Part shown: in pieces, positions 148 through 63,916 of the stretch
Layout of the letters: each line of letters starts with the position of its first letter
Position numbering within the stretch: position 1 is the first letter of the stretch
IMG/VR virus record: IMGVR_UViG_3300014205_005221
Location: 64,001 to 128,000 of that record
DNA length: 64,000 nucleotides
Reading direction: 5' to 3' (one strand)
DNA from: a virus
Taxonomy: Duplodnaviria; Caudoviricetes
The notes under the pieces: model-generated
The model's database searches: none
The model's input: the letters and a program-made list of their open reading frames with translations, nothing else
What the model was told of the DNA's origin: nothing
Position numbers and translations under genes: made by a program

Positions 148-217
148 ACCCGCACCATCCCTCACCCCCGACGATTCGGCCGGGGCCACCGTCCTACCCG
201 CCGGGTCCGCAAATAGT

Positions 218-252
218 ACAGGCCCCCTTGACGAATGCCAAAGGGGGCCTGT
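218..252 (-). terminator. Probable intrinsic terminator
   Basis: 12-bp inverted repeat acaggccccctt/aagggggcctgt just after the methyltransferase stop. Confidence 0.7.
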
Positions 253-266
253 GTCAACATCGAACT

Positions 267-944
267 TCACCAGTGTCGGTACCGACGGTCTTCCTGACGC
301 TTCCGGGCCTTGAGCAGATCCCGAGCCCAGTGGTCGACGAACCCGCAGCGCCGGGAGTACCTGCGCCCCAGCGCTCCCATCTCGGCCAAGTTGTCGGTGG
401 ACAAGTGCTGCCAGATGTCGAACCACGCCGCGTCGAAGCGAAAGTCCTTCGGGAGCACGTCCTTGGGCTCGAACACCGAACCGGTCAGGATCGTGAGCTT
501 CTTCCCCGCCGCCTCGACCAGGCGGGTCAGGTGCGGCCCGACCAGCGCGACCACGGCGAGATCGATCTCGATGACCGTGATCTCCCGGACCGAAGGCACG
601 ATGCACAGGCCCGTGACGACCATGCCCATTCCGAGACCGCCGATCAGCACGGTCTCCGCCTCAATCTCGTGACAACGCCGCACGAACGGAATGTGATCGT
701 CCATCTCGTCGACGGAGTCGCTCATCCAAAGCCCGCCGTGACGGTACAGCGCAGTGATGGTTCCGGCGCCCTGTCGCATGCCACGGCCGCCGTGCATCGC
801 TCCGTAGAGCATCGACGCCCTGGCCTCGTCCTCGCTGATGACCCGAGGACGGACCGATACCACACCGAACTCACCCGTCGGAAGCGTGCTGCGCATGGCC
901 GCGCGAATCTCGCTGTAGCCGATGCGGGTCTCTGTGTTCGTCAT
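267..944 (-). CDS. SAM-dependent methyltransferase / spermidine-synthase-like fold protein
   Basis: VLIGGLGMG motif I, ITVIEID acidic motif, FDAAWFDIW. Confidence 0.75.
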   Translation of the reverse strand: MTNTETRIGYSEIRAAMRSTLPTGEFGVVSVRPRVISEDEARASMLYGAMHGGRGMRQGAGTITALYRHGGLWMSDSVDEMDDHIPFVRRCHEIEAETVLIGGLGMGMVVTGLCIVPSVREITVIEIDLAVVALVGPHLTRLVEAAGKKLTILTGSVFEPKDVLPKDFRFDAAWFDIWQHLSTDNLAEMGALGRRYSRRCGFVDHWARDLLKARKRQEDRRYRHW

Positions 945-950
945 GCCAAC

Positions 951-979
951 AAGCTAGCACACACTGGCAAGGCAAGCAA
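951..979 (-). promoter_or_regulatory. Housekeeping-sigma (HrdB/sigma70-type) leaderless promoter
   Basis: Minus strand TTGCTT-N17-TAGCTT-N6-ATG(944). Confidence 0.6.
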
Positions 980-981
980 GT

Positions 982-1449
982 CTACGGGTTCGGCACCCAG
1001 CGCGTACGCTCCCGGTCCCAGGTCAGCCGACCACGCATGCCCTCCATGATCAAACGGTTCAGATCGTGGTGTGCAAACGGATGGTCAGGACTGCACGCAA
1101 CAGACGGTCCCGACGTCGGCTTTGTCTCGTCACCAATAGGGGACGGAGAGCTGTGAAAATCCGTGCCATCAAAATGCACGTACAGAGTCCACCGGGAGAA
1201 CCATCCGAACTCTTCGCACTCTTCGATACCGGGCCACCAGCCGGTCCAGATCTGGTTCTCTTCCGGAATCGGCTCAAAGACGTTCTCACACATCAAAATG
1301 AAAGATCCGTCTTTTTCTTCTATCTCGTCGCCATGACAGAAAGCCTGACCACCACAAATGACACATCGCGCCACATCACAGCCGTCAACATGACGAGAAC
1401 CCGGCTCCACACCGCAATCAGGACAATTGGTTTTCTCACCCAGAGTCAT
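982..1449 (-). CDS. Hypothetical Cys-rich protein
   Basis: CPDC and CxxC motifs; co-oriented with neighbours. Confidence 0.65.
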   Translation of the reverse strand: MTLGEKTNCPDCGVEPGSRHVDGCDVARCVICGGQAFCHGDEIEEKDGSFILMCENVFEPIPEENQIWTGWWPGIEECEEFGWFSRWTLYVHFDGTDFHSSPSPIGDETKPTSGPSVACSPDHPFAHHDLNRLIMEGMRGRLTWDRERTRWVPNP

Positions 1450-1450
1450 G

Positions 1451-1720
1451 TCAAGCGTGTCCGTATCCGGTGTTCACCATCTCGACACCGAACAAAAACG
1501 CCCTTCCCTCAGAAGAGATGGCCCACGCGCGCTCCCTGCCTCCTTCGGGAGAAATACGGCTTGCCCTCGGCGAAATAAACCAGTGCGCCTCTAACCACTT
1601 CGCGATGTGCAATTCCTCTTCGTTGAAGATAAATGCTCCTCCAGACGCCCTCATGCGAAAAAGACATTCCACAGCCTTGTCTCCATCGTCGGCGCTAACA
1701 AGATTGAACGGCTCCACCAT
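1451..1720 (-). CDS. Hypothetical protein
   Basis: Start re-assigned to MVEPFN after a GGGAG RBS. Confidence 0.55.
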   Translation of the reverse strand: MVEPFNLVSADDGDKAVECLFRMRASGGAFIFNEEELHIAKWLEAHWFISPRASRISPEGGRERAWAISSEGRAFLFGVEMVNTGYGHA

Positions 1721-1751
1721 GCTCTCCCAACCCCCTTCTGTTGCTTGTCTT

Positions 1752-2609
1752 CTACCCGAACACGAGCGACCACAGCGACGAATACAGACCCGGCCACCAC
1801 GCCAGCGCAACGAACGCCGTCACCACCCACGAGAACGTCCGCAGCTTCAGCTCCGCCCACTCCGAGGATCCGGTCGAGAGCAGCGCCGACTGAGGGCGGA
1901 CGTGGATCGGGTAGTACCGCTGCCCCCGGATCCGGATCGGCCACAGCAACGGCACGCCCGTCTTCGTCGCCGCGTCACCGAGTGAGTGCGCGAGCATGCC
2001 GACCGAAACCGACACACCGACACCGAGTCCGACAGCTGGAGCGATCAGCTCGGAGGCGATCCGCAACGGCTCCTCGGCCGTCGTCGTCACGAGCCACCAG
2101 AGCGCCGTACCCGCGACCAACGCCAGCACGAGACCGCGTACCTCTCCGAGCAGCCACGAGCCCACCAGCGCCACGATCAGGCCCGCCACGACAGCCAGCG
2201 CGAGAGCGGGCCAGCGGGTCGCGAGCAGATACGAGACCCACCCGAACACCAGCCCGGATACCACCGCCGAGATGCCGAAATGACTCAGCCCGCGATGTCC
2301 ACGGAAGTCGCCCTCAGATACGTCGCGCGAAGTTGCTGACATGTCGAACACCCAACACGACATGCGATGCACGAACAGATGCACCGCGCCGCTGATCAGC
2401 CCCATCGATCGGGTGGCCGTCGAATTGTGGTGATCGAGGTCGGGCCACAACGCCGCGCGCCCTGCCAGCCACGCAATCAGCAGTGCTCCCGCGACCGCGA
2501 GCACGCACGCCCACACAGGCGCGGGTGCAGGCACGACATACGGGCGCACACACGCAGCCACGCACGCGCCTGCACAGATACCAGTGACGCGATGCGTCAA
2601 GCCTATCAT
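1752..2609 (-). CDS. Membrane metal-dependent hydrolase (YdjM/LexA-binding family-like)
   Basis: N-terminal TH, PDLDH, HRGLSH and HSLGD motifs with several TM helices; start at MIGLTH 7 nt after GGGTATGA. Confidence 0.8.
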   Translation of the reverse strand: MIGLTHRVTGICAGACVAACVRPYVVPAPAPVWACVLAVAGALLIAWLAGRAALWPDLDHHNSTATRSMGLISGAVHLFVHRMSCWVFDMSATSRDVSEGDFRGHRGLSHFGISAVVSGLVFGWVSYLLATRWPALALAVVAGLIVALVGSWLLGEVRGLVLALVAGTALWWLVTTTAEEPLRIASELIAPAVGLGVGVSVSVGMLAHSLGDAATKTGVPLLWPIRIRGQRYYPIHVRPQSALLSTGSSEWAELKLRTFSWVVTAFVALAWWPGLYSSLWSLVFG

Positions 2610-2698
2610 GACGAAGTCATACCCGTCACCCACAGCACCCGATGATGTCCTGCACAAAAGGGGGTCTGGGGGAAAAGTATGTCTTACAGGTCAGAAGG

Positions 2699-2740
2699 CC
2701 GCAGCCCTGTCCTGTGCACAGTGCTAGGACAGGGCTGCGG
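2699..2740. repeat. 15-bp inverted repeat after traB (terminator and/or part of clt)
   Basis: ccgcagccctgtcct (2699-2713) / aggacagggctgcgg (2726-2740). Confidence 0.75.
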
Positions 2741-2763
2741 AATCCTCGTGGACAGCAAGGATG

Positions 2764-4770
2764 TCACTTAGAGCTGTCAACGGCAGACTGAGTGGACAGG
2801 AACCGCGTGAGGACGTAATTGGTCCCCTCACCCCCCGGCTGAGAGATCAGACCCTTGTCGATCCACGTCTTCTTTTCACGGTGGAACCACGAATTTCCGC
2901 GATCGGCCGCCTCGCGCAGCTCCTTGGCTGCAGCTCCGGGCAACCCACGCTGTTCCAACATTGCGAACACCGCCGCCTCACCCTGCGGAAGATCCGCCAG
3001 GCGCTCCGCAGCCGTGCGCGGCTCCTGCGCAGGCACCAGAGGCGTGGGCTGGGCAGCACCCTGTCCGGCAAGGCGAGCATGGTGACGCGCGATCTCCGCC
3101 ATGGACACATCCGGGCCGGTCAGGTCGTAAGCCGGGATCGGATCCGGAGTGATGTCAGTGACCGTCGCACCCTCATCCTCGGAATCAGACATGTCCGCCT
3201 CCTCATCTCCATCACCGTATCGAGCTGCACACCGCGCGGCGTAGAGCGGCGACACCGAGCACGCCGCGTTCCGAGATCCCTCATCAAGAGGCAACCCCGG
3301 TGCCCGTACCGCCAACACCATCTCCACCATCTCATCGGTGACTCGGTAATAGCGCAGCGGCATGCCCGTCCACCTGTCACGATCCTGCACATAGCAAGTG
3401 CCCGGCTGCGAGGACGGAATCAGGTTTGCCCCGACCTTCCGATTCGGGATGATGTAGGACTCGTGCGACTCCGCCTCGGTGCGGAAACAGATCCGCTGAT
3501 TGAGACGGTCACGGAACTGGCTCGTCCGTGTCGCCTCCAGAGTCGGGTTCTGTGTCGCGCCATTGACCGACATACCGAGAGCACGACCGGTGGTCGCCAG
3601 CCGGACGAGAACTTCCTCCACCCGGCGCATGGCCTTGTGGTCACGACCGTTGGATGCCGCCACCATGCGGTGCAGCTCGTCGATCCATACGAACAGCAAC
3701 GGAGCGGTGGGAGAGACCGGCCACGCCTTGCGGCCCGCGCGAGTGTTCTCCTCACCGCGATACGTCATGATCGCGTCGAGCGCCTGCAGCGACTCATCAA
3801 TGTCCTCAGGACGAGTGATGAGGTTGTCCATGATCGCGTCGAACGGCGCGATCTCCATGCCGTCCTTGAGGTCGTAACCCCACTGGGTGCCATCCGAACG
3901 ACACGAGATGTCGAGGATGTGCAGGGTCAGACCGCCGGACTTACCCGAGCCCTGCGAACCGCCAAACAGCTTGTTGACTACAGCGTTGATGTCACGCTCG
4001 TAGTATGGGATGTAGGCGATCTTGCCGTCTTCCTGGATACCCACCGCGCACGGGACGTCCACCGACAGATCTCCGCCGTCGTCGCCCTGCTGCGGACCCG
4101 GCCACTCGACAGCCTCGGTGATTGGGTTGTCCAGGAACGACATGTAGTCGACACGGTTGGTGTCACGGTTGTGCTTGACCAGACGCAACGTGCCCTCGGG
4201 AAGGCCCATCGCGCCCTCCAGCTGTTCGCGACGGTCCAGAACCTGCTTCACCGTTGTCGTGCCGCGCTCCCACACCAGGAAGCCCGCCTCGTTACCGTTT
4301 GGGCTCTTCTCCAAGATGTGCCGATTCGTCATGCCCAGCCCGAAATTGGCCGCGATCTCCGACCAGCCCCGCAGGTCATCCTCCAGATGCACCTGGGTGC
4401 GCTTGAACCGCGACGACCACCAACCCATGCCCAACAGGTGTAGGCCGATGACCCACCAGAACATGACGACCGCCCACTCCGACAGCGTCGTCGTCTGCCA
4501 CAACCACCACACCCACGCAGCCGACGCTCCCGCGCACACGAGCGCGTATCCGAGTCGGGTCCATCCGGTCAACCGGGTGAGCGTCCACATGAGCACGAGC
4601 AAGCCGATGACGGCGAGCGCGATCCACACCTCGGAGTGGTCACGCAGCGGCCAGGACAGATGTCCGAGCAGCAACACCACAAGCCCGGCGTAGTAGGGAC
4701 CAAGTCCCAGCCGCTGGGCATGGCGACGCTCCCACCAGGACATGTCCTCTTGGACTAAACGTCGCGTCAT
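2764..4770 (-). CDS. traB: TraB-type FtsK/SpoIIIE conjugative dsDNA translocase
   Basis: N-terminal TM helices, Walker A GSQGSGKS, DLKDG, Walker B WIDELH, ATQNP, C-terminal winged helix; this architecture is typical of actinomycete plasmid TraB. Confidence 0.85.
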   Translation of the reverse strand: MTRRLVQEDMSWWERRHAQRLGLGPYYAGLVVLLLGHLSWPLRDHSEVWIALAVIGLLVLMWTLTRLTGWTRLGYALVCAGASAAWVWWLWQTTTLSEWAVVMFWWVIGLHLLGMGWWSSRFKRTQVHLEDDLRGWSEIAANFGLGMTNRHILEKSPNGNEAGFLVWERGTTTVKQVLDRREQLEGAMGLPEGTLRLVKHNRDTNRVDYMSFLDNPITEAVEWPGPQQGDDGGDLSVDVPCAVGIQEDGKIAYIPYYERDINAVVNKLFGGSQGSGKSGGLTLHILDISCRSDGTQWGYDLKDGMEIAPFDAIMDNLITRPEDIDESLQALDAIMTYRGEENTRAGRKAWPVSPTAPLLFVWIDELHRMVAASNGRDHKAMRRVEEVLVRLATTGRALGMSVNGATQNPTLEATRTSQFRDRLNQRICFRTEAESHESYIIPNRKVGANLIPSSQPGTCYVQDRDRWTGMPLRYYRVTDEMVEMVLAVRAPGLPLDEGSRNAACSVSPLYAARCAARYGDGDEEADMSDSEDEGATVTDITPDPIPAYDLTGPDVSMAEIARHHARLAGQGAAQPTPLVPAQEPRTAAERLADLPQGEAAVFAMLEQRGLPGAAAKELREAADRGNSWFHREKKTWIDKGLISQPGGEGTNYVLTRFLSTQSAVDSSK

Positions 4771-4786
4771 CGGCTTGCTCGCCTTC

Positions 4787-6906: not shown

Positions 6907-6907
6907 C

Positions 6908-7845: not shown

Positions 7846-7871
7846 GTTTCGCTTCTACCCTTCAGAGACGC

Positions 7872-8302: not shown

Positions 8303-8449
8303 GTCTGTCTGAACTCCTTGGTTTCAGTGTGGCAATTTGCCACTCTTCTAGACTTGTACCCGACCGCCCACTAAATGATTTGTTAACGGCGGAACGAATC
8401 TGATCTTAGCTCAGAATAACCGACAGCGCCTAATCAATCAGAAGGTTCT

Positions 8450-9287: not shown

Positions 9288-9309
9288 GACGCTCTCCTAC
9301 CGCAGATAG

Positions 9310-9798: not shown

Positions 9799-9869
9799 TT
9801 AACTCCCCTCTCACTCTCGCAACCGGTTCATCCGGAACACCACTGTTCTACCCGGCAGAAAGGGAACTG

Positions 9870-11787: not shown

Positions 11788-11802
11788 ACGACGCTTCTAC
11801 CC

Positions 11803-12809: not shown

Positions 12810-12832
12810 GTCTGTGTTGTACCCAGCAGTGG

Positions 12833-13058: not shown

Positions 13059-13066
13059 CGCAAGTC

Positions 13067-13459
13067 CTACCCAACCGGTGCAGAAACGGGCACCAGCAAC
13101 GGAAGAATCAACGTCTGGGCTGCACCAAACTTATCACCCTGCCCGACGAACCACGCCTGGGCTCGCTCCCGGGAAAGGAAGGGACCGAACCCCATCGACA
13201 TGGTCTCAGAAAAGACAGCCACCACAACGAACTTGTCGGCGCGATCATCTGATTCCTGATCTGCATGGTAGAACACCGACTTCCCCCCGGCCTGCGGCGG
13301 AGACGAATCCGGATGTGCAAGCAGGAAATCTCGCACCTCATGCTTGCTCGGGTCAATGAAAGCTACACGGGGGTTAAACCACTCCAACAACCGCTCACGA
13401 TCCTCAAACGGACCGTACGCGTGCAAAATAGACTGATGTCTCCACACCAACACGCGCAT
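13067..13459 (-). CDS. Hypothetical protein
   Basis: TGATG overlap; internal repeated GPF motif. Confidence 0.6.
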   Translation of the reverse strand: MRVLVWRHQSILHAYGPFEDRERLLEWFNPRVAFIDPSKHEVRDFLLAHPDSSPPQAGGKSVFYHADQESDDRADKFVVVAVFSETMSMGFGPFLSRERAQAWFVGQGDKFGAAQTLILPLLVPVSAPVG

Positions 13460-13766: not shown

Positions 13767-14051
13767 CTACCTTCTACCCTGAAACGGGCTGTAGTGATAG
13801 ATCATGCCTAAAAGCCAACTACGTCCCACCGGATTGGCTGAATGAACACGAACCACACGCGGCCAGCGATCCTCATGCTCACAGAGCCAGAGAACCACCG
13901 GCCGCGTCGTGTCCTCGCCGCCCAGGTCGTGATCAAGCGACATCTCCGAGACCGCACAGATACTCAGAGTTTCGATTGCCGCACTCGAACTCAGCGCCCA
14001 CGCCCACTCGGAGCCCGGAGGCTTGCGAATGTCATCGACCCAGAGCTTCAT
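13767..14051 (-). CDS. Cyclic-phosphate-processing receiver-like domain protein
   Basis: KLWVDDIR, SLDHDLG and VHSANPVG motifs. Confidence 0.75.
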   Translation of the reverse strand: MKLWVDDIRKPPGSEWAWALSSSAAIETLSICAVSEMSLDHDLGGEDTTRPVVLWLCEHEDRWPRVVRVHSANPVGRSWLLGMIYHYSPFQGRR

Positions 14052-14596
14052 GCCACATGTTCTACCCTGTCCGGGAACAGGCACCTGACGTTGTACGGAA
14101 TCCACTCCTCCTTGGAGTAGCGCGACCGGATCAGACCGACCACCCACTCCGGGACCAGCTCCTCAGACTCCAGGTACGACGCACGCGCCCACTCCGGAAG
14201 CTGACGCGTGATAGCCCGGCGCTTACCCTTGAGCGAGCGCGGAGGCATACAGGAGCCCGGATCATCCCAAGGACCGGCAGGAACCTCCGGAACCGAGAAC
14301 TGGCTCCACCGCTCACGGCGCGGAGCGTTCCTTTCCTCGTGCCACAGCGAGATGGTGCAGTGCGCACGGTTGGAACCCTTACGGTTATTGCAGTCGGCGC
14401 ACAGGATCGTCGCGTTCTCCATCAGCGACGCACCACCCAACGAGCGCGGGTGGATGTGATCCAAGGTCAACTGCGAGCCGGTGCCCCAGACATTCGGACA
14501 CCGGCACTGCCTACATCGTTCGTGGCCCAACCGGATGCGTGCTCGATACACTCGCACCCAGTGGGCATGCTTATCCCAGCTGGGGTACGTAGCCAT
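14048..14596 (-). CDS. HNH endonuclease
   Basis: LTLDHIHPRSLGG...N...LCADCNNRKG. Confidence 0.85.
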   Translation of the reverse strand: MATYPSWDKHAHWVRVYRARIRLGHERCRQCRCPNVWGTGSQLTLDHIHPRSLGGASLMENATILCADCNNRKGSNRAHCTISLWHEERNAPRRERWSQFSVPEVPAGPWDDPGSCMPPRSLKGKRRAITRQLPEWARASYLESEELVPEWVVGLIRSRYSKEEWIPYNVRCLFPDRVEHVA

Positions 14597-14663
14597 AATG
14601 ATGTTATACCCGACTACAGAGACCGTGTCATCTGATATTCGAGCAACGACACCGGATCAGACG

Positions 14664-15375: not shown

Positions 15376-15391
15376 ATTGCTTACCGCTGTT

Positions 15392-15775
15392 CTACCCCGA
15401 CATGCGTGAAAGCAATTCCGCTGCTACCGCAGCCGTGCGCTTAGCCGGTGTCGACGGCTTTAATCCGAGCGCGATGTTGATGGTCACCAGCGCCTCACCA
15501 AGACCCTCATTCGCCTCGATAAGCTGGCAAATGACGTCATTCTCGTTCGGAGACTGGCCCATCGAGGCAAACAGATTCGGAGCGCCAGTAGCCAGGATCG
15601 TGCACTCCCGGCACCAATGAGACTGGTCTTCCGGAGTGCCGACAAACGCCTCTGACCAGCCGCCGTACTCCACCGCCTGCCGCCACGTCTCCGCAGACGT
15701 AGCACCGGTGCCGCCCGCCCACACATCACGGCAGTGGTCACACACGAACTCGTAGAGATGCCTGCGCACCAACAT
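15392..15775 (-). CDS. Hypothetical Zn-finger protein
   Basis: CDHC...HWCREC; TGATG start. Confidence 0.6.
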   Translation of the reverse strand: MLVRRHLYEFVCDHCRDVWAGGTGATSAETWRQAVEYGGWSEAFVGTPEDQSHWCRECTILATGAPNLFASMGQSPNENDVICQLIEANEGLGEALVTINIALGLKPSTPAKRTAAVAAELLSRMSG

Positions 15776-17114: not shown

Positions 17115-17411
17115 TCATACCGACTCAGCGAGATCATCCAGCTCGCCCGCAAGCGCGGCTCCGCTATAGCCCTGCGCCTCCACCAGCTCACGCAGCGCCG
17201 CTCGCTTCTCCGGGATGGGCCCATCACCATCGACCCAAAGGCGCACCACCGCCCGGCATCGCATGAGCAACCACGAGCGCGCGTGCGCCTCGTCGTAGAG
17301 CGCCTGCTCCAGCGCCACGATTTCACGCTTGAGACGAAGCACCTCGGCCTGCAGGTTCTCCGCCGTGCCTCGCCAGTCCACCAGAGCCAGGTCTACGCCT
17401 TCGGAATCCAC
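17115..17411 (-). CDS. Hypothetical coiled-coil protein
   Basis: GTG after GGAGG; heptad pattern. Confidence 0.6.
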   Translation of the reverse strand: MDSEGVDLALVDWRGTAENLQAEVLRLKREIVALEQALYDEAHARSWLLMRCRAVVRLWVDGDGPIPEKRAALRELVEAQGYSGAALAGELDDLAESV

Positions 17412-17631
17412 GCTTCCTCCACGCACCGCAGGTCAGCGCCGTAGCGCTCATACCAGATGTCATACCCGGTCGGGTCATCATCTTCAGCCCGGGGCAACTT
17501 CTTCGGTGCGCAGACCGGCGGGAAACACGTTCAGCTTGCGCACGTAGACGTCCATGGTCTCGTGCACAGCGATCAGCGGAGACTCCTCTTCGGACATGAA
17601 GCAGTCTCTACGAAACCGCGATCAAACAAAC

Positions 17632-19015: not shown

Positions 19016-19050
19016 CAGGATGTCCTCTCGATGTTCGCCATGCAGCTGTC

Positions 19051-19515
19051 CTACCCTGACTTCTCGACTGTCTTGGCCTCCGCGCGCATACGCTTCGCGT
19101 GAAACATGGTGTCATCCGCAAGATCTTCAGGCATGTTCCTGGCCGCCGCCTCCAGCGCATCCGCAGACTCGCGCAGAGCCCTAGCCCGGCCAGCCGGAGA
19201 CGCCGCGAACGCTTTGCGCGCCGACCGACGCGAGAACCACATCAGCGACGAGTACGCCCCGCACAACAGCCCGATAGCGGCAAGCAGCGGCCAGAACGGA
19301 GCCCCCACAATCGCCGCCACCCACGTGATAGTTACGTCATCCTTGTAATCGCCGAACTCGTCGCGTTTGCGGCCAATCAGCTCATGCCTAGCCTGATTGC
19401 GCGCCGCCAGCACCACGCCGACAACCCACCACAACGCCCACACGTAAATCCAGACAGACAGCACGATGTCCCCGGCCAGCTTGCCGGAACCGTCAATCAG
19501 GAACCACGGAGTCAC
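19051..19515 (-). CDS. Membrane protein
   Basis: Two TM segments with a WP motif. Confidence 0.65.
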   Translation of the reverse strand: MTPWFLIDGSGKLAGDIVLSVWIYVWALWWVVGVVLAARNQARHELIGRKRDEFGDYKDDVTITWVAAIVGAPFWPLLAAIGLLCGAYSSLMWFSRRSARKAFAASPAGRARALRESADALEAAARNMPEDLADDTMFHAKRMRAEAKTVEKSG

Positions 19516-20367: not shown

Positions 20368-20376
20368 GTCGGTGTT

Positions 20377-20643
20377 CTACCCCTGACCGTTGCGACCCGG
20401 GATGGTTTCGCAGCCCCAACAACACCAGAACCGCAGCGTGCCATCCGCATCCGTAGTGAAATTGCCGTCCTCGATGTCTTCCCAGTCAAAACACCAGGGG
20501 CATAGGATCGCCTCACCGAGCCCGACCGCCTCCAGATACTTGATGTAGTCCGGAACGGACAACGGGGTGTCCGCCGCCTTACACGGCCAGGACACCCCGC
20601 ACACACAGAAATCCAAACGGCTATCCGTCGGAATATGAAGCAC
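20377..20643 (-). CDS. Hypothetical Zn-finger protein
   Basis: CVCG.SWPC, CPWC and CWGC motifs. Confidence 0.6.
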   Translation of the reverse strand: MLHIPTDSRLDFCVCGVSWPCKAADTPLSVPDYIKYLEAVGLGEAILCPWCFDWEDIEDGNFTTDADGTLRFWCCWGCETIPGRNGQG

Positions 20644-20939: not shown

Positions 20940-20948
20940 GTCAGCCTT

Positions 20949-21044
20949 CTACCCTGACAATCCGGATCGGAGCTGCCGCACTCGCGCGATCAGCAAATGC
21001 CACTCCAGACCCGGAGGCAGATACCGAGGCGAACCGTCCGCCAT
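20949..21044 (-). CDS. 31-aa micro-protein not in the ORF track
   Basis: MADGSPRYLPPGLEWHLLIARVRQLRSGLSG; TGATG start overlap; ends at GGG-TAG motif and fills the gap exactly. Confidence 0.5.
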   Translation of the reverse strand: MADGSPRYLPPGLEWHLLIARVRQLRSGLSG

Positions 21045-21304: not shown

Positions 21305-22170
21305 CACTTCCCCAACCCGGCATGACGGCGCCACGCGTGATAGGCCACCGCACCCGACTGACTCTGCCAACGACCCACCGAGCCGCAACCACACACCCAC
21401 CGCCAGACGTCAGAACCCTCTTCCCCCGGCAGCTCGAAGCGATGCACACCGAACGCGCTCGACAACCGCACCGACTCCACACACCGCGAACAGTCGCACG
21501 GCCGCGCACCCTCACCGAAAAACTCCGGGGCCAACCCCGACACCTCACCCGGAACACCCTCGACGATCACCATCCCGGCCAACGGATCGACCTTGCGGCC
21601 CTCCCGAGCACGACGAGTCCGCGCATACTCCGAATCCGGCCACAGCAGCATGTCGATGACATCAGCCTCCTCCAGCAACTCCGCCCGGATCAACTCCAAC
21701 ACATCACGATCGAAGTCCACCGCCGACCGATCCAGATCCGGATCCAGCAGTTCCGCCCAGCCCCGACAGCGTGCCGCCAGCGCATCGACGCTCGACCGCA
21801 ACTCGCGCCCCAGCTTCATCAGCGCAGCAGGGTCAGAGCTATTCGAGCCCATCGACGTCGCCACCGCAGCCATGTCGTCAGCGGCTCGCAGAACATCCGC
21901 TTCCAGCCGCTCCCGGCGCTTGCCGTGCTTGCGCTCCAGCGGCTGCCACACCCGGCGCAGCTCATTGTCCGCCTCCACCGAGAGCTTGTCATCGGACGCG
22001 CAGCCGATCAGTACATCGGCAAGATGGCCCAGCGGAGTCCGCCACCCCAGCAGCCGCTCGGCGGTCTCGAACGCCCGGATCAGATCCTTGTTCATACTGC
22101 TGTCATACCGAGCGAGCACAGCATCCACGAACTCACGATGCTTGATTCTCAACCGATCGATCTCACGCAC
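21304..22170 (-). CDS. Hypothetical protein with C-terminal Zn-binding motif
   Basis: CDCSRC and CGCG...H; GTG start overlapping the upstream stop. Confidence 0.6.
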   Translation of the reverse strand: MREIDRLRIKHREFVDAVLARYDSSMNKDLIRAFETAERLLGWRTPLGHLADVLIGCASDDKLSVEADNELRRVWQPLERKHGKRRERLEADVLRAADDMAAVATSMGSNSSDPAALMKLGRELRSSVDALAARCRGWAELLDPDLDRSAVDFDRDVLELIRAELLEEADVIDMLLWPDSEYARTRRAREGRKVDPLAGMVIVEGVPGEVSGLAPEFFGEGARPCDCSRCVESVRLSSAFGVHRFELPGEEGSDVWRWVCGCGSVGRWQSQSGAVAYHAWRRHAGLGK

Positions 22171-23413: not shown

Positions 23414-23439
23414 ACACCTGTCATACCCGGGGACGGCAA

Positions 23440-24044: not shown

Positions 24045-24153
24045 AGCAACCCCCTCACGCCAACCTTTTCACCGATCACCGGGCAAGTACAGATCTACTA
24101 ACTACTGTGTAGCAGACTTATGTTGGATCCCGGAGCTAGATGGCGGAGCCGTT

Positions 24154-24957
24154 CTACCCGGCCAGGGGGTTCGCTTCGCCGCGACGCGCCCATTCCGAGG
24201 AAAGTTCAGCCTTCAGAACAGCCGTGATCATCGACGCACCCTGTTCTCTAAAAGTCCGAACCCACTCCGTCGCATATGGACTCATCAACGGATCACAACT
24301 GATCTCCGGAAGCTTCCGGGCGATAGCCGCGTCGTCCATCTCCAAGTAGTACGCCATAGCCAGCACGAGCTGGTGTGTTTCCGGCAACCCCTGGATCACC
24401 GCCACGACCTTGTCGCACACGGTATTAGTCAGCGCATCGTCTGCGACATCGACCGGATCCGCAGGCCAAGTGTCCTCTGTGGTCTCTTCCAGAGACACAG
24501 GCATGCGCTGCAGCGCGCCCACCGCTCGCTTCACATCGACGGGCGTGATGCCCACCCGGGCAGCGATGGACTCGGCGGACTCGGCCTCCCACGGCGAGGA
24601 CAGATCCACCCCCGCTGCGAGGATCTGCTTGATCAGAGCCCGCTCACGGCGCGTAGCCGGATCCTGGGAGCGGAGGGCATCAATGACCGCACCGTTGATG
24701 CGGCGCGAGGCGTAGGTGTCGAACCACGACCCCGCTTCGCCCTCGTACGCCTCGTAGCCGTTCTCCTCGCAATACTTCTCCCACCGCAGCGCGGCAGCGA
24801 TCAGACCGGAGATGGCGTACGCGATGATCTCATCACGTTCGTATCCGACTAACCGCTGCCACGCTCGATGGCCGCAGGCGCGGGCAAGGCCCACGCGATC
24901 CTCAACAAGCTTACGTTGCCTGTCCGTCAAACGGACCACGTCATCGGCCATGCCCAT
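24154..24957 (-). CDS. Phage-encoded sigma-70 family factor (group 3, FliA/WhiG-like)
   Basis: Region 2 GLIAAA...FDTYASRRINGAVIDALR, region 3 IAARVGIT...PVSLEE, region 4 LPETHQLVLAMAYY. Confidence 0.85.
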   Translation of the reverse strand: MGMADDVVRLTDRQRKLVEDRVGLARACGHRAWQRLVGYERDEIIAYAISGLIAAALRWEKYCEENGYEAYEGEAGSWFDTYASRRINGAVIDALRSQDPATRRERALIKQILAAGVDLSSPWEAESAESIAARVGITPVDVKRAVGALQRMPVSLEETTEDTWPADPVDVADDALTNTVCDKVVAVIQGLPETHQLVLAMAYYLEMDDAAIARKLPEISCDPLMSPYATEWVRTFREQGASMITAVLKAELSSEWARRGEANPLAG

Positions 24958-29456: not shown

Positions 29457-29747
29457 TTACTGAATCGCTTGATCAGTCCTACCCGCCGAAGGCAGATCCC
29501 GGACGAACCGAGGGGGCGACCCCCACGTCACGAGAGGCGGTTGAGCTGCAGGTTTGCGGGGTGTCACCACCGCGACCGCATAATTCAAATCCCTAGAGAA
29601 CGCCTGAATTGCCTCAGCAATCAAAGACGTGCGCCAGTCAGCCTTCATGGACATCTCCCCAGTGATGTCTGCCGACAGATCTACCAAGATAGGTGACCTG
29701 ATGAAGGCGGTTAAGGCGACGTGCTCGGTGGCATCCCTGCACCACAC
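29457..29747 (-). CDS. Hypothetical protein
   Basis: Fills the gap; weak support. Confidence 0.35.
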   Translation of the reverse strand: MWCRDATEHVALTAFIRSPILVDLSADITGEMSMKADWRTSLIAEAIQAFSRDLNYAVAVVTPRKPAAQPPLVTWGSPPRFVRDLPSAGRTDQAIQ

Positions 29748-30219: not shown

Positions 30220-30914
30220 GTCGGGATCCGACCGTACTCTGTCATTGTTGAATACACCTTGTGAATCCCCACCGTTGTACCCGGCTGGGGGGCATCGATC
30301 ATCACGCCGCCCCCCAGATAAATGCCGACGTGCCCAGGCCCGTACACCAGGTCTCCGGCACGAGCCGCCGAGCGCGAGATCGGTGTTGTCCAACTACGGA
30401 GGGTCAAAGATGTTCGGTATGTGTTTGTCAACCCCGCCTGCTTGAGCACGAGATACACCAGACCAGAGCAATCAACACCGGAACGCGCCTTGCCGCCCCA
30501 GCGGTACGGCACACCGATGTAGGTCTTCGCGATGGCAACAATCCCCGCCACGCCTGCAACCTGCTCGACCAGCCCACCCACCAGACCCGGATCAGCGGCT
30601 GTAGGCGGCGCTGTGGAGGTTCGCGGGGGAGCAGACGACGTAGCAGAAGCCGTCGGCGTGACGAACTTCTGAGGGATCTCAGCGGGCTCCGCTGGAATGA
30701 CCACAGGAGTCAAAGATGTGGTGTCCGCCAACGATTGCGACGGCACGGCAGCAAGCCCGATCGGCACCGTGGTCGAAGTGTCAGCGGGAGAAGTGACAGC
30801 TCGAAATGCGCCGGAATCGGACACGACCAAGCCGCCAGCTGCAGCGATGGCAGCAGCGGTGGTCAAAAGCTTCTTGTTGGAGTGCGCGGGCGGTTTGCGG
30901 TGACGTCCAGCCAT
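30216..30914 (-). CDS. Secreted NlpC/P60 (C40) peptidase
   Basis: PYRWGG...DCSGLV...GDLVY..GHVGIYLG; signal-peptide-like N-terminus MAGRHRK. Confidence 0.9.
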   Translation of the reverse strand: MAGRHRKPPAHSNKKLLTTAAAIAAAGGLVVSDSGAFRAVTSPADTSTTVPIGLAAVPSQSLADTTSLTPVVIPAEPAEIPQKFVTPTASATSSAPPRTSTAPPTAADPGLVGGLVEQVAGVAGIVAIAKTYIGVPYRWGGKARSGVDCSGLVYLVLKQAGLTNTYRTSLTLRSWTTPISRSAARAGDLVYGPGHVGIYLGGGVMIDAPQPGTTVGIHKVYSTMTEYGRIPT

Positions 30915-53682: not shown

Positions 53683-53725
53683 CTTACACTCCTCTAGGTA
53701 TGACTACTTTGTCGTACCCAAAAGA

Positions 53726-58479: not shown

Positions 58480-58480
58480 C

Positions 58481-58723: not shown

Positions 58724-58806
58724 TTACAAAAAAGGTAAGGACGTCCACACTTTGTGCAGTTACCGCGCTGAGGCGGACGGTAGAAATACCAGAACATGAC
58801 TCTCCT

Positions 58807-59061: not shown

Positions 59062-59072
59062 GATGCGCTCCT

Positions 59073-59635: not shown

Positions 59636-59999
59636 TCGAATCCTCCCAACCCGGAGACATGCACGTCGTCCACGACGCCTTGGTCAACGACCCGTCCTTA
59701 GAACGCCGGACCAGAGAATCCCGGCCGTTCCACGTCACGCACGGCTCGACTACCACGCACCGATCACCAGAGCAGATGGTCACCACCTCGTTGCGCACCG
59801 GCATCCAGTACTCAGACTCGACGTCGCCCCGATGCAGCAACCACTGCAGGCGCCACCAGTACTCCAACAGCGGGAGAACGATGCCTCGGCGCCAGAACAG
59901 ATACACCAGCATGAACGGAACGCGAACGGCCCAGAACCGCGTCGACACCGAGCCGTCCGTAGGCTTCTTGATGTACAAACGAATCGTCGAAAGTTCCAT
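59619..59999 (-). CDS. Hypothetical protein
   Basis: TGATG overlap. Confidence 0.55.
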   Translation of the reverse strand: MELSTIRLYIKKPTDGSVSTRFWAVRVPFMLVYLFWRRGIVLPLLEYWWRLQWLLHRGDVESEYWMPVRNEVVTICSGDRCVVVEPCVTWNGRDSLVRRSKDGSLTKASWTTCMSPGWEDSNVDVG

Positions 60000-60217
60000 C
60001 AGATGACCGGATCAAACTCTTCCGGATCGAACTCACCCAGCTTCACGCCACGAATGAATGCGCTCCACTCGCTCCGGGTAAATCGCAACTTCGGGCCGTC
60101 CGACTCCTTGGTGTCGCTGATGAGGAACACAGCGTCCTCGCGCGAGAACTCGACGTCGACACAGTCACCGGACGGGTTCGAAAAGGACGACTTCACGGCT
60201 TGGTGCGCTCCTTCCAT
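59999..60217 (-). CDS. DUF397 (BldB/Scr2-like) protein
   Basis: KSSFS...CVDV...SDTK...L.F...EW.AFI.GVK.GEFD. Confidence 0.85.
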   Translation of the reverse strand: MEGAHQAVKSSFSNPSGDCVDVEFSREDAVFLISDTKESDGPKLRFTRSEWSAFIRGVKLGEFDPEEFDPVI

Positions 60218-60405
60218 GCCTTCTTGAACAGATCCCAGTTCACCCGCTGCCGATCGATCCATGGCGCCGCGTCCCAGGCGTCCACGATCTGCTCGTACAA
60301 CTCTTCACACGAGTTCAGATCTTCAGCTCGCTCTGCGGCGTCGTACTTCTCATTCAACTCCAGCCACTCCTGCAGAGACGGCGGGACTGCCAAATCAGCG
60401 CTCAT
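60193..60405 (-). CDS. Hypothetical protein
   Basis: Start 7 nt after GGGTAGAA. Confidence 0.6.
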   Translation of the reverse strand: MSADLAVPPSLQEWLELNEKYDAAERAEDLNSCEELYEQIVDAWDAAPWIDRQRVNWDLFKKAWKERTKP

Positions 60406-60414
60406 GCAGGTGTT

Positions 60415-60621
60415 CTACCCGCTAGTGAGCTGCCAGAGCCCCCACAAAGACAGGCCAAAGGCCACCACCGTGATCACCGGCAGCAAAACCCACGCCCACT
60501 GCCCCGCCTCATCCGAGATGCAGAACAGAATCACCCACAACATCCACACGAGGAACGCCGCAGCGACCGCACCAAAAAAGACTCCGAGCAACTCCAAAAA
60601 CGGAGGAAGCGTGATCGTCAC
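60415..60621 (-). CDS. Small two-TM membrane protein
   Basis: Hydrophobic hairpin. Confidence 0.6.
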   Translation of the reverse strand: MTITLPPFLELLGVFFGAVAAAFLVWMLWVILFCISDEAGQWAWVLLPVITVVAFGLSLWGLWQLTSG

Positions 60622-61280
60622 GTCCGGATCACCACGGTATTGCGCACCTCAACACTGTTAGTGCGGCCACGTTGCGCGCGAGAATCCGCCTTGACCGACG
60701 ACGACTGTGTCTGAGTCTCCGAAGGGAAACGACCGGACAGCAGATCCATCATTTTCTCGACATTGTTCTCAACAATGTGAGTGTAATCCACACCATCCAA
60801 AACCAGCAGAATGGCAAGCTTGCCGTCACGAAGTGCGTAGATCAGCTCTACAGAGTCGGTGAACAGACTCAGAGCCCAATAGCCGCGCTCGTGACCCACT
60901 TCAAGAGACTCGCCAAACCCGGCCGACAGATGCTCATACGCCTTCTGAATGAGCTTGGGGGCATCTTCGATATTTGCGCCAGTCGGAAAGTCGCGAGGAA
61001 GACTTTGACGGTAAGTAGGGTCGCGCCACAACTTACCGAAATCGTCATCCAGCCACACAGTAGGACGCTGCTTACCATCAACAGACAGCTTCACGTTCTT
61101 GAGGAACGTGCGTCCGCTCGGACTGACCTTGAAAAACGCCTCGTTGCGGACCCGGCCGTTATTGGCGATCAGCGTCCAGCCGCGCGTCACCTTAATGACC
61201 TCGGGGACCTCCCCCGTCTGTGCAACAACACGTTCGATGTATTCCTGCACAGACGGGGGATAGATCGAAACATCAGCCAC
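60618..61280 (-). CDS. Hypothetical protein
   Basis: Abuts the nucleotidyltransferase gene. Confidence 0.65.
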   Translation of the reverse strand: MADVSIYPPSVQEYIERVVAQTGEVPEVIKVTRGWTLIANNGRVRNEAFFKVSPSGRTFLKNVKLSVDGKQRPTVWLDDDFGKLWRDPTYRQSLPRDFPTGANIEDAPKLIQKAYEHLSAGFGESLEVGHERGYWALSLFTDSVELIYALRDGKLAILLVLDGVDYTHIVENNVEKMMDLLSGRFPSETQTQSSSVKADSRAQRGRTNSVEVRNTVVIRT

Positions 61281-62093
61281 TCAGCACCAGCCCCAGTACT
61301 TCTTCAGCGTGTCGATGACCCACGCATCGATCTTCTGGTAGTCCGGCTTCTCCGGGAGCGGACCGGCACCGGACTTCATCAGATCAAAGATCTCCGCTTC
61401 CAGCGCTTCCGCGCGACCCAGAGCTTCCTGCTTGGTGTACTTACCCACACGAAGGTCCCGGATCCAGGTGAGATCCGGTTCCGGGATCGGAAGCGTGATC
61501 GAACCGGTCTTGAGCAGCTCCACGCCCTGCACGCCGAGACGCACCATGTGCCCCGCGAACTTCGTATCGAAACCGTACTGCTCCCTGATATCCGCACGGC
61601 CCTGGTTGCGAGTACCGCCCGAGCGCAGGCCCAGCAGACCCTCACGCTGCGAACGCAGATATCCCGCGTACTTGAACCCGTTGCTCCGCGAAAGAAAAAG
61701 ATGCCGGTTCTCTCGCAGCGAGCGGCCCCACTGATTTGCAAACAGCACATGCTCCTGGGGGACAAACAGCGGAAGCTGCATTGTCGGATTCCCCTGTGCC
61801 ACCAGATCGACATAATGCCGAAGATTGTAAGCAACAAAGTCCAGGTCACCCGGACCGGAGCACACACCCTCGGGCTTGGTGCGCCAGGTGTACGTCTTGG
61901 TGTTCACCGACCCCAGAACCTGACGAGGGTGCTCCAGCCACACACCCATCTCATCGCGGTCGTCGGTTCCCTCGATCGACGTGCCATGCACACCCGAGCC
62001 CGCCAGCACGCGCAGGATCATGCCCTCGCGTGCGACCTTCTGGCGCGGGCTGTCCGGAAGGATCGGAATAACTTCGTTGAATTTAGCGCTCAC
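61281..62093 (-). CDS. Pol-beta superfamily nucleotidyltransferase (RlaP/YcgL-like)
   Basis: GS.VHG....DDRDEMGV, GNP, YGFDTK.A.H..RL, LPEKPD. Confidence 0.85.
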   Translation of the reverse strand: MSAKFNEVIPILPDSPRQKVAREGMILRVLAGSGVHGTSIEGTDDRDEMGVWLEHPRQVLGSVNTKTYTWRTKPEGVCSGPGDLDFVAYNLRHYVDLVAQGNPTMQLPLFVPQEHVLFANQWGRSLRENRHLFLSRSNGFKYAGYLRSQREGLLGLRSGGTRNQGRADIREQYGFDTKFAGHMVRLGVQGVELLKTGSITLPIPEPDLTWIRDLRVGKYTKQEALGRAEALEAEIFDLMKSGAGPLPEKPDYQKIDAWVIDTLKKYWGWC

Positions 62094-62106
62094 GTAAATC
62101 TTCTAC

Positions 62107-62571
62107 TCATTCCTTAGGAGGATCGCAGAACTCCGGAGGCGGGTCCGTCACCCACGCCGGAGTGATATCCCGGTCCTCGAACTGAGGATTGCGCGTCCAC
62201 ACGCCGCCGGGCTTACGCTCCCACGCCTGCTCGATGTAGCACCCGACCGACGACATCGACTCGCCCGCACCACGACACTCATGCCACGGCGGATCACCGT
62301 AGCGGAAGTTCTCCGTCAGGTAATCGAGGTTCCACTCCGGCGGAAGCTCATCGCCTTCACGGAAGCTCCGGTACCGGTCATAGCGTGTCCAGCCCTCACC
62401 GACCGACATGCGCAGAGCACACGCCTGACACTCGATGCGAGCCAGCACGGCCCACGTGTCGTAGACGCCCAGCATCCGAGGATGGAAAGCCGCGTAACGC
62501 GGAACCCCGTAGCCATCGTGCCACAACGGGGTTCCGGCAATCTCGCGAATATCCTGATAGTCAGGAAGCAT
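62107..62571 (-). CDS. Hypothetical protein
   Basis: GVPRY..FHP, CQAC and YGDPP motifs; leaderless start. Confidence 0.65.
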   Translation of the reverse strand: MLPDYQDIREIAGTPLWHDGYGVPRYAAFHPRMLGVYDTWAVLARIECQACALRMSVGEGWTRYDRYRSFREGDELPPEWNLDYLTENFRYGDPPWHECRGAGESMSSVGCYIEQAWERKPGGVWTRNPQFEDRDITPAWVTDPPPEFCDPPKE

Positions 62572-62580
62572 GTCAGAGTC

Positions 62581-63021
62581 CTACCCCGGGAGAAGACGCC
62601 TTGAGAACAAGTCCTTCAGCTCAAGGCGCGCCTGCGCTTTCCACTGCTCCTCGGTGCACGGGGAATACTCACCCCACACCTTCTGACCGAGCAGCCGACA
62701 ATCGTAGTCCGCCTCGGTGGGATCGTTGTCGATCGAATAGCCCTCCCGCTCCTGATAGCTCGGAGCGGGATCCCGGAACGGGCAGTCAGGACAGAACGAA
62801 CCCGGACCGTAGTCCGGGGACATCGTCGAACCGTTGAGCAGCCACTGCAAAGCCGGATAGAAATGCTCGTCAGCAGAGTCCGCCATCTCAGCGAGAGTAT
62901 CGCCGTAGAGAGACAGCGTGCACTCAGAGCACGACAGTCCCCAAAACACCTGACCGGTGTAACGGCGGTAGGAACGCAGCTTCGAGCGGTGCACCAACGG
63001 CATCGCCCCGCGCTCAGACAT
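62581..63021 (-). CDS. Hypothetical Cys-rich protein
   Basis: CSEC and CPDCPF motifs. Confidence 0.6.
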   Translation of the reverse strand: MSERGAMPLVHRSKLRSYRRYTGQVFWGLSCSECTLSLYGDTLAEMADSADEHFYPALQWLLNGSTMSPDYGPGSFCPDCPFRDPAPSYQEREGYSIDNDPTEADYDCRLLGQKVWGEYSPCTEEQWKAQARLELKDLFSRRLLPG

Positions 63022-63250
63022 CAGAAAGTCCCGGAACCTTTACGCCCCAGCACCTAGCTACCTTGCGAAGCACCGTCGTCGCATAAATGACGGACTCCTG
63101 CGTGTTGTACCCCGCCTGCGAGTAAATACGAATCAGATGATGAACTGCCTCGTGGAGAGCGTCTTCATCCACCGAAACCGGCAGACACACCATGACATCC
63201 TCGACGTTCTCCACGACTACACCTCCGGAGGGAACGCCACGTCCCAACAC
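63014..63250 (-). CDS. Hypothetical protein (start uncertain)
   Basis: Co-oriented packing. Confidence 0.5.
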   Translation of the reverse strand: MLGRGVPSGGVVVENVEDVMVCLPVSVDEDALHEAVHHLIRIYSQAGYNTQESVIYATTVLRKVARCWGVKVPGLSDV

Positions 63251-63420
63251 GACGGGCAGATACCTGACATCAGCTGCTCACGACGGTCCACACTCAGATC
63301 ACTCAGAGCTTCCTGAATATGTGCACCGTGCTTCCACCGGTTGTACCCGATCTGATCGACCTCGAACTCGTCGACCTTGTGACACGTCGGGCACTCGGAA
63401 CTTACCAACAATACGGACAT
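63217..63420 (-). CDS. Small Zn-finger protein
   Basis: CPTC...IQEAL..LS...RE.LMSGICPSCWD. Confidence 0.7.
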   Translation of the reverse strand: MSVLLVSSECPTCHKVDEFEVDQIGYNRWKHGAHIQEALSDLSVDRREQLMSGICPSCWDVAFPPEV

Positions 63421-63421
63421 G

Positions 63422-63751
63422 TCACTTACCCACCGGACGCTTGCCTCCGCAAAACTGATCCCACTCGGTCATCCGCAGCAGCGGCGTCGCGCCACCACCG
63501 CTGTCGCTACGGCCCGACGACGGCGTGGCGAAACCCAGGCCATCGACACACACCTTGGCGATGTTCGGGTACAGGTCTGCGTTGCGATACACCTCGATGT
63601 AGTCCACGTCGCTAACCACATCGACCGGAGAGCCCTCGTGGCCGCCCCGGTCACCGAGCTGCTCCGCACACCCGGTCAGCAGCGCGAGCGACAGCCCAGC
63701 GCCGACCAGAACACCCACAACACGCTTAGTCCTCACGGGGATCCCTTTCAC
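63422..63751 (-). CDS. Lipoprotein
   Basis: Signal peptide with lipobox LTGC. Confidence 0.75.
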   Translation of the reverse strand: MKGIPVRTKRVVGVLVGAGLSLALLTGCAEQLGDRGGHEGSPVDVVSDVDYIEVYRNADLYPNIAKVCVDGLGFATPSSGRSDSGGGATPLLRMTEWDQFCGGKRPVGK

Positions 63752-63760
63752 AACGAAGTT

Positions 63761-63916
63761 CTACCGGGGACGACGCTTCTTGCGGTCGACCACAACAGGC
63801 TTAGCAATGCTCAAAATATGCTCAGAAAACTCGCACCCGGGACGGGCGCAGTACCGCATGCTGCGCTGGGTCAGAAACTTGCCGTGACCACACTCAGGGC
63901 ATTTCCATGCGCTCAC
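63761..63916 (-). CDS. Small Zn-ribbon protein
   Basis: GTG after GAGGAG: MSAWKCPECG...C..PGC. Confidence 0.5.
   Translation of the reverse strand: MSAWKCPECGHGKFLTQRSMRYCARPGCEFSEHILSIAKPVVVDRKKRRPR

Follow-up and report, generated by a model that had tools for sequence, protein, structure and literature searches.

The DNA analysed here is a stretch of 64,000 nucleotides (the window), bases 64001-128000 of the 186,050-bp viral contig IMGVR_UViG_3300014205_005221 (60.4% G+C), on which a short word with the consensus GGGTA-G/T/C-R-A-S recurs a fixed distance before start codons. We propose that this word is probably a phage-specific extended -10 promoter element, covering positions -15 to -8, which is read by the host core RNA polymerase together with the phage's own FliA/WhiG-like sigma factor. 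For about half of the copies the first transcribed base (+1) would be the A or G of the start codon, giving a leaderless mRNA that is translated from its 5' RTG; leaderless mRNAs are common in Actinomycetota. The remaining copies would produce leaders of 22-44 nt containing a Shine-Dalgarno (SD) sequence, or drive tRNA genes and non-coding stretches. A preliminary description of the window had proposed a -10-only promoter with its +1 on the start codon, giving many accessory genes a promoter of their own, and several lines of sequence evidence now support that proposal.

Enrichment and spacing of the motif

In the window the word GGGTA[GTC][AG]A has 29 copies on the minus strand and two on the plus strand, and in the arrangement GGTA[GTC][AG]A-N7-RTG there are 16 cases on the minus strand against none on the plus. 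Over the whole contig, where the minus strand holds 249 of the 251 genes called in this analysis, the word is found 96 times on this coding strand and 4 times on the other, with an expectation of about 15 under a third-order Markov model and a range of 5-18 in 20 simulations. At 48 of the 96 contig sites an RTG follows exactly 7 nt after the motif, compared with 3.5 expected from the frequency of RTG and 0-2 in simulations. The histogram of spacings has a lone sharp peak at N7, every other spacing accounting for 10 sites or fewer. The contig was binned into a 2.9-Mb metagenome-assembled genome (MAG), and in the rest of that bin the word has a density of 0.38 per 10 kb per strand, compared with 5.2 on the coding strand of the phage. 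The eleven most over-represented 8-mers of the phage genome are GGGTAGGA and GGGTAGAA words together with ATGACGAACACC, an early-gene tag described below.

Within the consensus A and G are equally frequent at R, and at S the base C is about twice as frequent as G. The start codons at N7 are ATG in 35 cases and GTG in 13 with no TTG, and the codon is the first start codon in its frame in 40 of the 48 cases and opens an open reading frame (ORF) of at least 52 codons in 43. No conserved -35 element had been seen in the window and our position matrix and k-mer enrichment agree, the former staying at or below 0.3 bits in every column upstream of the contig sites and the latter returning no shared 4- or 5-mer between -32 and -8. 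Neither was there a conserved -35 element at the spacing of 14-17 bp that group-3 sigma-70-family promoters have.

The motif had also been described as nearly absent from the virion operon, and between window positions 30282 and 53712 we indeed found no GGGTA-type copy. Six GGGTA-type copies (5224, 11426, 28151, 30275, 63105 and 63341) are internal to ORFs, over 60 nt ahead of the stop codon, and may be there by chance. We considered the TAG within the motif as a termination-reinitiation device and rejected it. This TAG is in frame with the N7 start and ends the upstream gene in 10 of 45 cases, which is about the expectation for one frame in three, so no special role for it is needed.

Transcription or translation signal

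Position alone cannot tell a transcription signal from a translation signal because an SD sequence and the -10 element of a leaderless gene would both sit there. A translation-initiation signal, either an unusual ribosome-binding site or a relative of the Cluster K Start-Associated Sequences (SAS), would account for the placement of the motif and for the AGGA or AGGAG that about a third of the copies carry at SD distance, and the ATG bias, single orientation, preference for non-structural genes and upstream stop inside the motif are all SAS-like (PMC3203893). Against this, ten copies on the contig lie 12-101 nt upstream of tRNA genes, their number in the tRNA regions being many times the chance level, and with 1, 2 and 2 copies upstream of tRNA genes in three relatives the association extends to four genomes. 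Other copies lie 22-44 nt upstream of start codons that have an SD-like word of their own between the predicted +1 and the start. Both the tRNA-linked and the SD-leadered copies argue against a translation signal, as do the GAA, TGA, TAA and CAA variants of the motif which have no anti-SD complementarity, and position 9, at which C is favoured over the G that would lengthen the pairing. The SAS consensus GGGATAGGAGCCC, sought with up to two mismatches as the match criterion after Pope et al. 2011, has no match on either strand of the 186-kb contig.

The base immediately before the start codon separates motif genes from SD-led genes. Pyrimidines occupy this position in 44 of 45 motif genes versus 29 of 57 SD-led genes (Fisher p=3e-8), in all 32 sigmaA-type leaderless promoters (see below) that were assigned to genes, and in 15/15, 21/26 and 22/25 of the motif genes of three relatives. 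RNA polymerase start sites usually favour Y(-1)R(+1), and we know of no need of translation for a pyrimidine at -1; SD-led genes do not show this signature of transcription. Copies that are not placed at a start codon agree with this, the predicted +1 being a purine in 34 of 48 (p=0.003). With +1 set on the start codon the 8-mer spans -15 to -8 with T at -12, A at -11 and its final A at -8, only ATG and GTG serve as start codons, and no upstream RNA is left for an SD sequence. In four of five orthologous gene pairs shared with the closest relative a motif-like word stands at the same spacing in differing flanks, and three of these four kept words match the pattern that was scanned, five motif genes with orthologs being too few for statistics. 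With the tRNA-linked copies and the -1 signature both pointing to transcription we regard a translation-initiation signal as improbable.

Copies before tRNAs, mRNAs and non-coding stretches alike would also be covered by an RNA-processing signal, with an endonuclease cutting long transcripts at a fixed distance downstream of the motif to free tRNA precursors and AUG-starting mRNAs, and the phage does have RNA-repair enzymes such as RtcB. We identified no candidate nuclease, however, cleavage 7 nt away from a single-stranded word of 9 nt would be unusual, and the T-A at -12/-11, the Y-1R+1 signature and the presence of a sigma factor of the cognate type fit initiation better, so that we think processing very improbable. 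The many copies in single orientation within short intergenic spaces are likewise reminiscent of binding sites for a DNA-binding regulator such as the oriented 'stoperator' sites of Cluster A mycobacteriophages. An operator would not be expected to show a -1/+1 signature or the sharp spacing at N7 or N6, and in the parts of the genome examined we noticed neither a repressor nor an integrase module; we give this explanation hardly any weight.

A divergent sigma factor encoded by the phage

Proteins encoded on the contig include a Mu-type portal, an HK97-type capsid protein, tail fibre proteins, DNA polymerase A, RecA, DnaB, a sliding clamp, a clamp loader, a class II ribonucleotide reductase, RtcB and an SNF2 helicase, a set of virion and replication genes from which we conclude that the contig is a large tailed phage. 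Its 40 tRNA genes, confirmed by Infernal, lie without exception on the minus strand, and in the window and four flanking loci tRNAs were the only Rfam families detected. Among cultured phages the nearest relative is Microbacterium phage Magritte, with a capsid protein 58% identical. The closest counterparts of the bin's primary sigma factor come from Nanopelagicales-like and other Actinomycetota MAGs. A phage RNA polymerase was not found among the 38 largest proteins in Pfam or PHROGs scans, which covered the small proteins only in part.

Pfam sigma domains gave no match on the phage contig at E<=0.01, and the only approach that found a sigma gene was a hidden Markov model (HMM) of the sigma factors of the host bin, which picked out a 267-aa protein encoded on the minus strand at 24157..24957 (E=1e-5). 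This divergent group-3 (FliA/WhiG-like) sigma factor is the proposed reader of the motif. Its matches to the Pfam r2, r4_2 and r4 domains are sub-threshold yet collinear, and among its 35 homologs, which lie on phage-sized contigs, the Joint Genome Institute (JGI) names several FliA or 'specialized sigma'. A profile of the family aligns over positions 6-210 of 255 to residues 14-215 of sigma-28 in the sigma-28/FlgM structure (PDB 1rp3, E=2.7e-14), with regions 2 to 4 collinear with the solved structure and the alignment ending before the recognition helix of region 4.2, and it also matches Streptomyces WhiG (6pfv, E=9e-14) and E. coli sigma-28 (6pmi, E=5.5e-11). An AlphaFold2 model (pLDDT 82.5) returned only sigma factors among the Foldseek matches to the PDB listed (ranks 1-50), and the best NCBIfam model is TIGR02479 (FliA_WhiG, E=6e-17), ahead of SigB/F/G. 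The protein is a divergent relative of the FliA/WhiG subfamily and not a member of it.

The alignment shows a typical region 2.3-2.4 string, SWF.TYASRRI.GAIIDALRS, and an insertion in the phage family at the place of the region-4.2 recognition helix. With such an insertion promoter strength would rest on the long -10 element alone, and we infer that the altered region 4.2 fits the missing -35. The genome holds no other over-represented word that is a candidate target for this sigma factor. In Magritte the homologous gene (OR553905.1 47155-47895) is annotated merely as 'DNA binding protein' and stands beside a DNA helicase; in the present contig as well the SNF2 helicase and the sigma factor share a gene string.

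The sigma factor and the motif in related phages

The sigma gene is kept in every relative examined, and in the three with the most similar proteins the motif is found along with it. IMGVR_UViG_3300048606_000075 (sigma 70% identical) has 29 copies on the coding strand versus 11 on the other strand and a peak of 15 sites at N7; in IMGVR_UViG_3300049434_000014 (51%) the counts are 84 versus 18 and in IMGVR_UViG_3300049324_000002 (46%) 70 versus 12, both with a peak at N6, of 25 and 26 sites respectively. At 28-33% identity (IMGVR_UViG_3300015371_000001, 3300037780_000050 and 3300020583_000010) the motif is not enriched over a reversed-word control and there is no spacing peak. Three further relatives (G003, G004 and G005) and Magritte, which match the sigma profile weakly at 60-124 bits compared with 363 for 3300049324_000002, have neither clear enrichment nor a peak. 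As the motif is absent from Magritte we discarded this nearest cultured relative as a motif carrier; its own over-represented word, TAGCGCGT, lies in the spacer of apparent host-type promoters and is not comparable.

The preliminary description had attributed the motif to group-3 sigma factors of the SigB/SigF type. The link to group 3 fits, but the likelier reader is the FliA/WhiG-like sigma factor of the phage and not a SigB/SigF factor of the host. Promoters of the SigB/SigF type have the -10 sequence GGGTA(T/C), which the motif core resembles, and a -35 of GTTT separated from it by a spacer of N14-17. If a host factor of this family were to read the same leaderless promoters a good candidate would be at hand, for the host bin encodes, besides WhiG, a SigB/F/G-family sigma factor that scores 320 bits and lies above the curated cut-off. 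At no spacing did we see a GTTT-like -35, however, the R and A conserved at -9 and -8 are not required by the SigB/F consensus, and the word occurs in host contigs only at background density. A host reader would also leave the phage sigma factor, kept in all relatives examined, without an over-represented target. The G+C content of the three motif-sharing relatives is 49.5% to 55.4%, extending to 60.4% with the present contig, and since this spread makes it probable that their hosts differ it favours a specificity factor borne by the phage. On this evidence a host SigB/SigF-family reader is unlikely.

A second promoter class and the proposed programme

The phage genome has a second class of start-adjacent promoter with about 37 copies on the contig, consisting of TTGAC(A/T) or TTGCTN, N17, TANNNT and N6-7 followed by ATGACGAACACC. 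Its only copy in the window lies at 941..979 on the minus strand (TTGCTT, N17, TAGCTT, N6, then ATGACGAACAC), where a sigmaA-type -35/-10 pair abuts the start codon, and about 36 copies are found outside the window (loci L027, L028, L030 and L034). Some 37 otherwise unrelated small genes thus share their first four codons (M-T-N-T) right at a sigmaA-type promoter. They cluster at both ends of the contig and in a few islands, and the clustering at both ends suggests that the contig is a complete, permuted genome. The sigmaA-type pairs abut the ATG and leave no space for a leader; leaderless expression, as predicted from this geometry, would be a habit of this phage, and the GGGTA class would copy the arrangement. 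The tag ATGACGAAC also has 20 copies in IMGVR_UViG_3300049324_000002 and is absent from the two other relatives that share the GGGTA motif.

Promoters of the sigmaA type (TTGACA, N17-18, TANNNT) are also carried by tRNA clusters, at contig minus-strand indices 10887, 12933 and 157877 (loci L033 and L028), and with both promoter classes present there the tRNAs may be made in both phases of infection.

We suggest that the host sigmaA would read the early genes as leaderless mRNAs, all beginning MTNT, and that the phage sigma factor would then turn the core polymerase towards some 100 GGGTAGRA promoters, which head the structural operons or lie in regions of replication, accessory and tRNA genes. 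With the sigmaA-type class as the likely mark of early genes, the GGGTA class would be a later, sigma-switched programme. The sigma gene ends a gene string behind a promoter of its own class at 29477, an arrangement that suggests positive feedback.

Several points weigh against this proposal. The sequence itself shows the statistics and positions of the motif, the homology of the sigma factor and its co-occurrence with the motif, but the transcription start sites, the timing and the pairing of sigma factor and promoter are all inferred. The sigma gene appears to lie behind a promoter of its own class, which leaves its first expression unexplained, and sigma-28 normally needs a -35 element of which there is none here. 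The score of the phage protein against TIGR02479 is 62.2 bits compared with a cut-off of 189.6, and the SigB/SigF-family sigma factor or the WhiG of the host could be the reader of the motif. The co-occurrence of sigma factor and motif among the relatives is confounded by the overall relatedness of the phages. Terminator hairpins, although they precede a few individual sites, are not enriched upstream of the motif, the folding energy of the 48 nt upstream being the same as at random positions and other gene starts. Lastly, a role in translation must still be allowed for in the third of the copies that bear AGGA or AGGAG.

A more specific scheme, which we offer tentatively and hold to be possible but doubtful, is that in this lineage of phages a full-length sigma-28-type factor has been remodelled into a reader of the -10 element alone by the insertion in place of the -35 recognition helix, and that a promoter of 9 bp has been fused genome-wide to start codons. 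The word would then serve as a promoter and as an upstream stop (TAG), and its GGA form would also be a weak ribosome-binding site when transcripts read through. Combined with the MTNT early promoters this would amount to a complete two-stage and mostly leaderless programme in uncultured actinobacterial phages.

Comparison with known systems

A phage sigma factor with its own promoter class is a known kind of system, of which those of T4, SPO1 and phiEco32 are well known. What would be new here is a sigma-28 lineage without a -35, the fusion of promoters to start codons across a genome and the actinophage setting. In the literature searched we found no characterised phage sigma factor with promoters of its own from a phage of Actinomycetota, and to our knowledge no sigma-28-type protein has been found to read a promoter that lacks a -35. 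The late promoters of T4 (TATAAATA) are read by gp55 with gp33 and the gp45 clamp. They resemble the present system in being -10-only promoters of 8 bp read by a phage sigma-family protein on the host core, and this phage too encodes sliding clamp and clamp-loader homologs. T4 differs in that gp55 has no region 4, where the present factor is a full-length group-3 sigma, and in that T4 late mRNAs are leadered. The SigB/SigF promoters known from Actinomycetota and Firmicutes also have GGGTA as the core of their -10, canonically GGGTAT, but they need a -35 and their consensus does not include the R-A conserved here at -9/-8. Their sigma factor is host-encoded, which makes it a rival reader of the motif and not a family in which to place the present system. 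In phiEco32 gp36 is the sigma factor for middle and late promoters and gp79 is its helper (PMC12276001). There as here a phage sigma with its own promoter class succeeds early promoters of the host sigma-70 type, with the differences that gp36 is ECF-like and makes essential -35 contacts and that no gp79-like helper was identified in this phage.

The sigma-28 promoters have a -10 element (-15)GCCGATAA(-8) from which A-11 is flipped out (PMC12784957). Sigma-28 (FliA/WhiG; PDB 1rp3, 6pmi and 6pfv) is like the present factor a group-3 sigma with domains 2, 3 and 4, and the extended -10 elements of both are 8 bp long and, with the +1 predicted for the phage genes, would lie in equal register with A at -11 and -8. 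Here, in contrast, the sequence is GGGTAGRA and there is no TAAA-type -35; the factor is encoded by a phage, bears an insertion in region 4.2 and scores well short of the family cut-offs; and its predicted targets are about 100 phage gene and tRNA promoters, half of them leaderless. The Cluster K SAS (GGGATAGGAGCCC) is 13 bp long and includes a full SD sequence, and it is thought to be translational with separate promoters upstream, though its function is still open (PMC3203893, PMC11373665). It too is an actinophage motif of a single orientation, placed a few bases ahead of the starts of non-structural genes, among which ATG is favoured, and it often contains the upstream TAG stop. The cores GGG(A)TAGGAG are similar; unlike SAS, half of the present variants have no SD sequence and copies precede tRNAs.

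Some 50 genes per genome are apparently expressed singly as leaderless messages. If confirmed, the system would be a test bed for the extent to which a group-3 sigma factor can be guided to its start sites by nothing more than a long -10 element, and for leaderless translation across whole gene programmes. The motif offers an independent check of start-codon calls, and sigma factor and promoter possibly form a compact orthogonal pair for actinobacterial synthetic biology. Other phage motifs that lie next to start codons, the Cluster K SAS among them, may deserve a second look as possible promoters.

Individual copies in the window

The preliminary description listed 16 start-adjacent sites and 11 further copies; on re-reading, coordinates, sequence and spacing were as given for all of the former, and coordinates and sequence for all of the latter. 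Two N7 sites were missing from the list, both on the minus strand as are all copies that follow: CGGTAGGAG at 9295..9302, before a GTG (9287) that opens 178 aa, and CGGTATGAC at 22103..22110, before the ATG 22095 of a 263-aa ORF.

The listed N7 sites begin with the leaderless candidate GGGTATGAC at 2617..2624, whose ATG at 2609 opens 285 codons. The word GGGTAGAAG recurs at 7853..7860 (ATG 7845, 151 aa), where the TAG of the motif is the stop of the upstream ORF, and at 11795..11802 (ATG 11787, 119 aa), 13772..13779 (ATG 13764, 101 aa) and 20947..20954 (ATG 20939, 98 aa). Single forms are GGGTACAAC at 12817..12824 (ATG 12809, 72 aa), GGGTATAAC at 14604..14611 (ATG 14596, 182 aa) and CGGTAGAAC at 63759..63766, which precedes the GTG 63751 of a 109-aa ORF. 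CGGTATGAC is found again at 17115..17122 (ATG 17107, 186 aa) and GGGTATGAC at 23421..23428 (GTG 23413, 131 aa), and GGGTAGAAC stands at 20375..20382 (ATG 20367, 145 aa) and 60413..60420 (ATG 60405, 70 aa). The variant GAGTAGAAG at 62101..62108 lies before the GTG 62093 of a 270-aa ORF, and GGGTAGGAC at 62579..62586 before the ATG 62571 of an ORF of 154 aa.

At two sites the ATG lies at N8. GGGTAGAAC at 14060..14067 precedes a 94-aa ORF whose ATG overlaps the upstream TGA stop (ATGA). GGGTAGGAC at 13065..13072 had been placed among the further copies, thought to precede leadered genes or non-coding stretches, and is instead an N8 site opening a 153-aa ORF, a leaderless candidate with a spacing one base longer. 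The reverse holds for 19049..19056 (GGGTAGGAC): the ATG 19041 at N7 had been taken as a gene start and opens 8 codons only, the likely gene being an 82-aa ORF that begins 26 nt further downstream behind GAGAGGA and would be leadered.

The further copies include several with leaders of the predicted kind. GGGTACAAG at 8354..8361 has a 44-nt leader with AGGAG, GGGTAGAAC at 9846..9853 a 40-nt leader with GGGGAG and GGGTAGAAG at 1750..1757 a 22-nt leader with GGGAGAG. For GGGTAGAAC at 15390..15397 the leader would be short, 7 or 25 nt, and for GGGTATGAC at 17460..17467 the candidate GTG lies 26 or 41 nt after the predicted +1. GGGTAGGAC at 29477..29484 gives a 39-nt leader to the SNF2 helicase (561 aa) and heads the string of helicase, ribonucleotide reductase and sigma genes. 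At 53712..53719 the predicted +1 of GGGTACGAC lies 22 nt before a TTG start behind AGGAG that opens a 274-aa ORF; this is the only copy heading the tail module, and its ORF falls under the match to the tail region of Magritte.

Two copies lead into stretches of less certain coding content. GGGTAGAAC at 24152..24159 comes right after the sigma gene, whose TAG stop (24156-24154) falls within it, and for about 100-260 nt after it no convincing ORF is seen. GGGTAGGAC at 192..199 is followed by a G+C-rich hairpin-like stretch with candidate starts 19-49 nt downstream.

Further observations

A non-coding sequence of about 50 nt (GGCTMCGCCATCTAGYTCCGGG...CTACACAGTA) is nearly alike after two GGGTAGAAC copies, one in the window (24050-24159, minus strand) and one at contig minus-strand index 182504 (locus L027), where it leads into a sigmaA-type MTNT promoter and the two promoter classes stand in tandem. 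Several motif copies, at window 192-199 and at contig minus-strand indices 153053, 155471 and 181627 (loci L028 and L027), have similar G+C-rich hairpins after them, with AGTTAGG or AGATAGG in the loop and CTAAGTCC or CTGAGTCC next in line. Rfam searches of the window, L027 and L028 returned nothing for these hairpins, which may belong to a small non-coding RNA family transcribed from the motif.

Other strand-biased words were noted, namely CTCCGGGT in the present contig (40 versus 7) and GGCCGGGT (50 versus 0) and GACTACTC (39 versus 1) in IMGVR_UViG_3300049324_000002 (L114-L121). The RecA homolog of 838 aa (L029:14229-16742, minus strand) and the RtcB homolog of 744 aa (L030:9684-11915, minus strand) are both far above the usual length and their Pfam matches span just part of them; they may contain inteins or extra domains.

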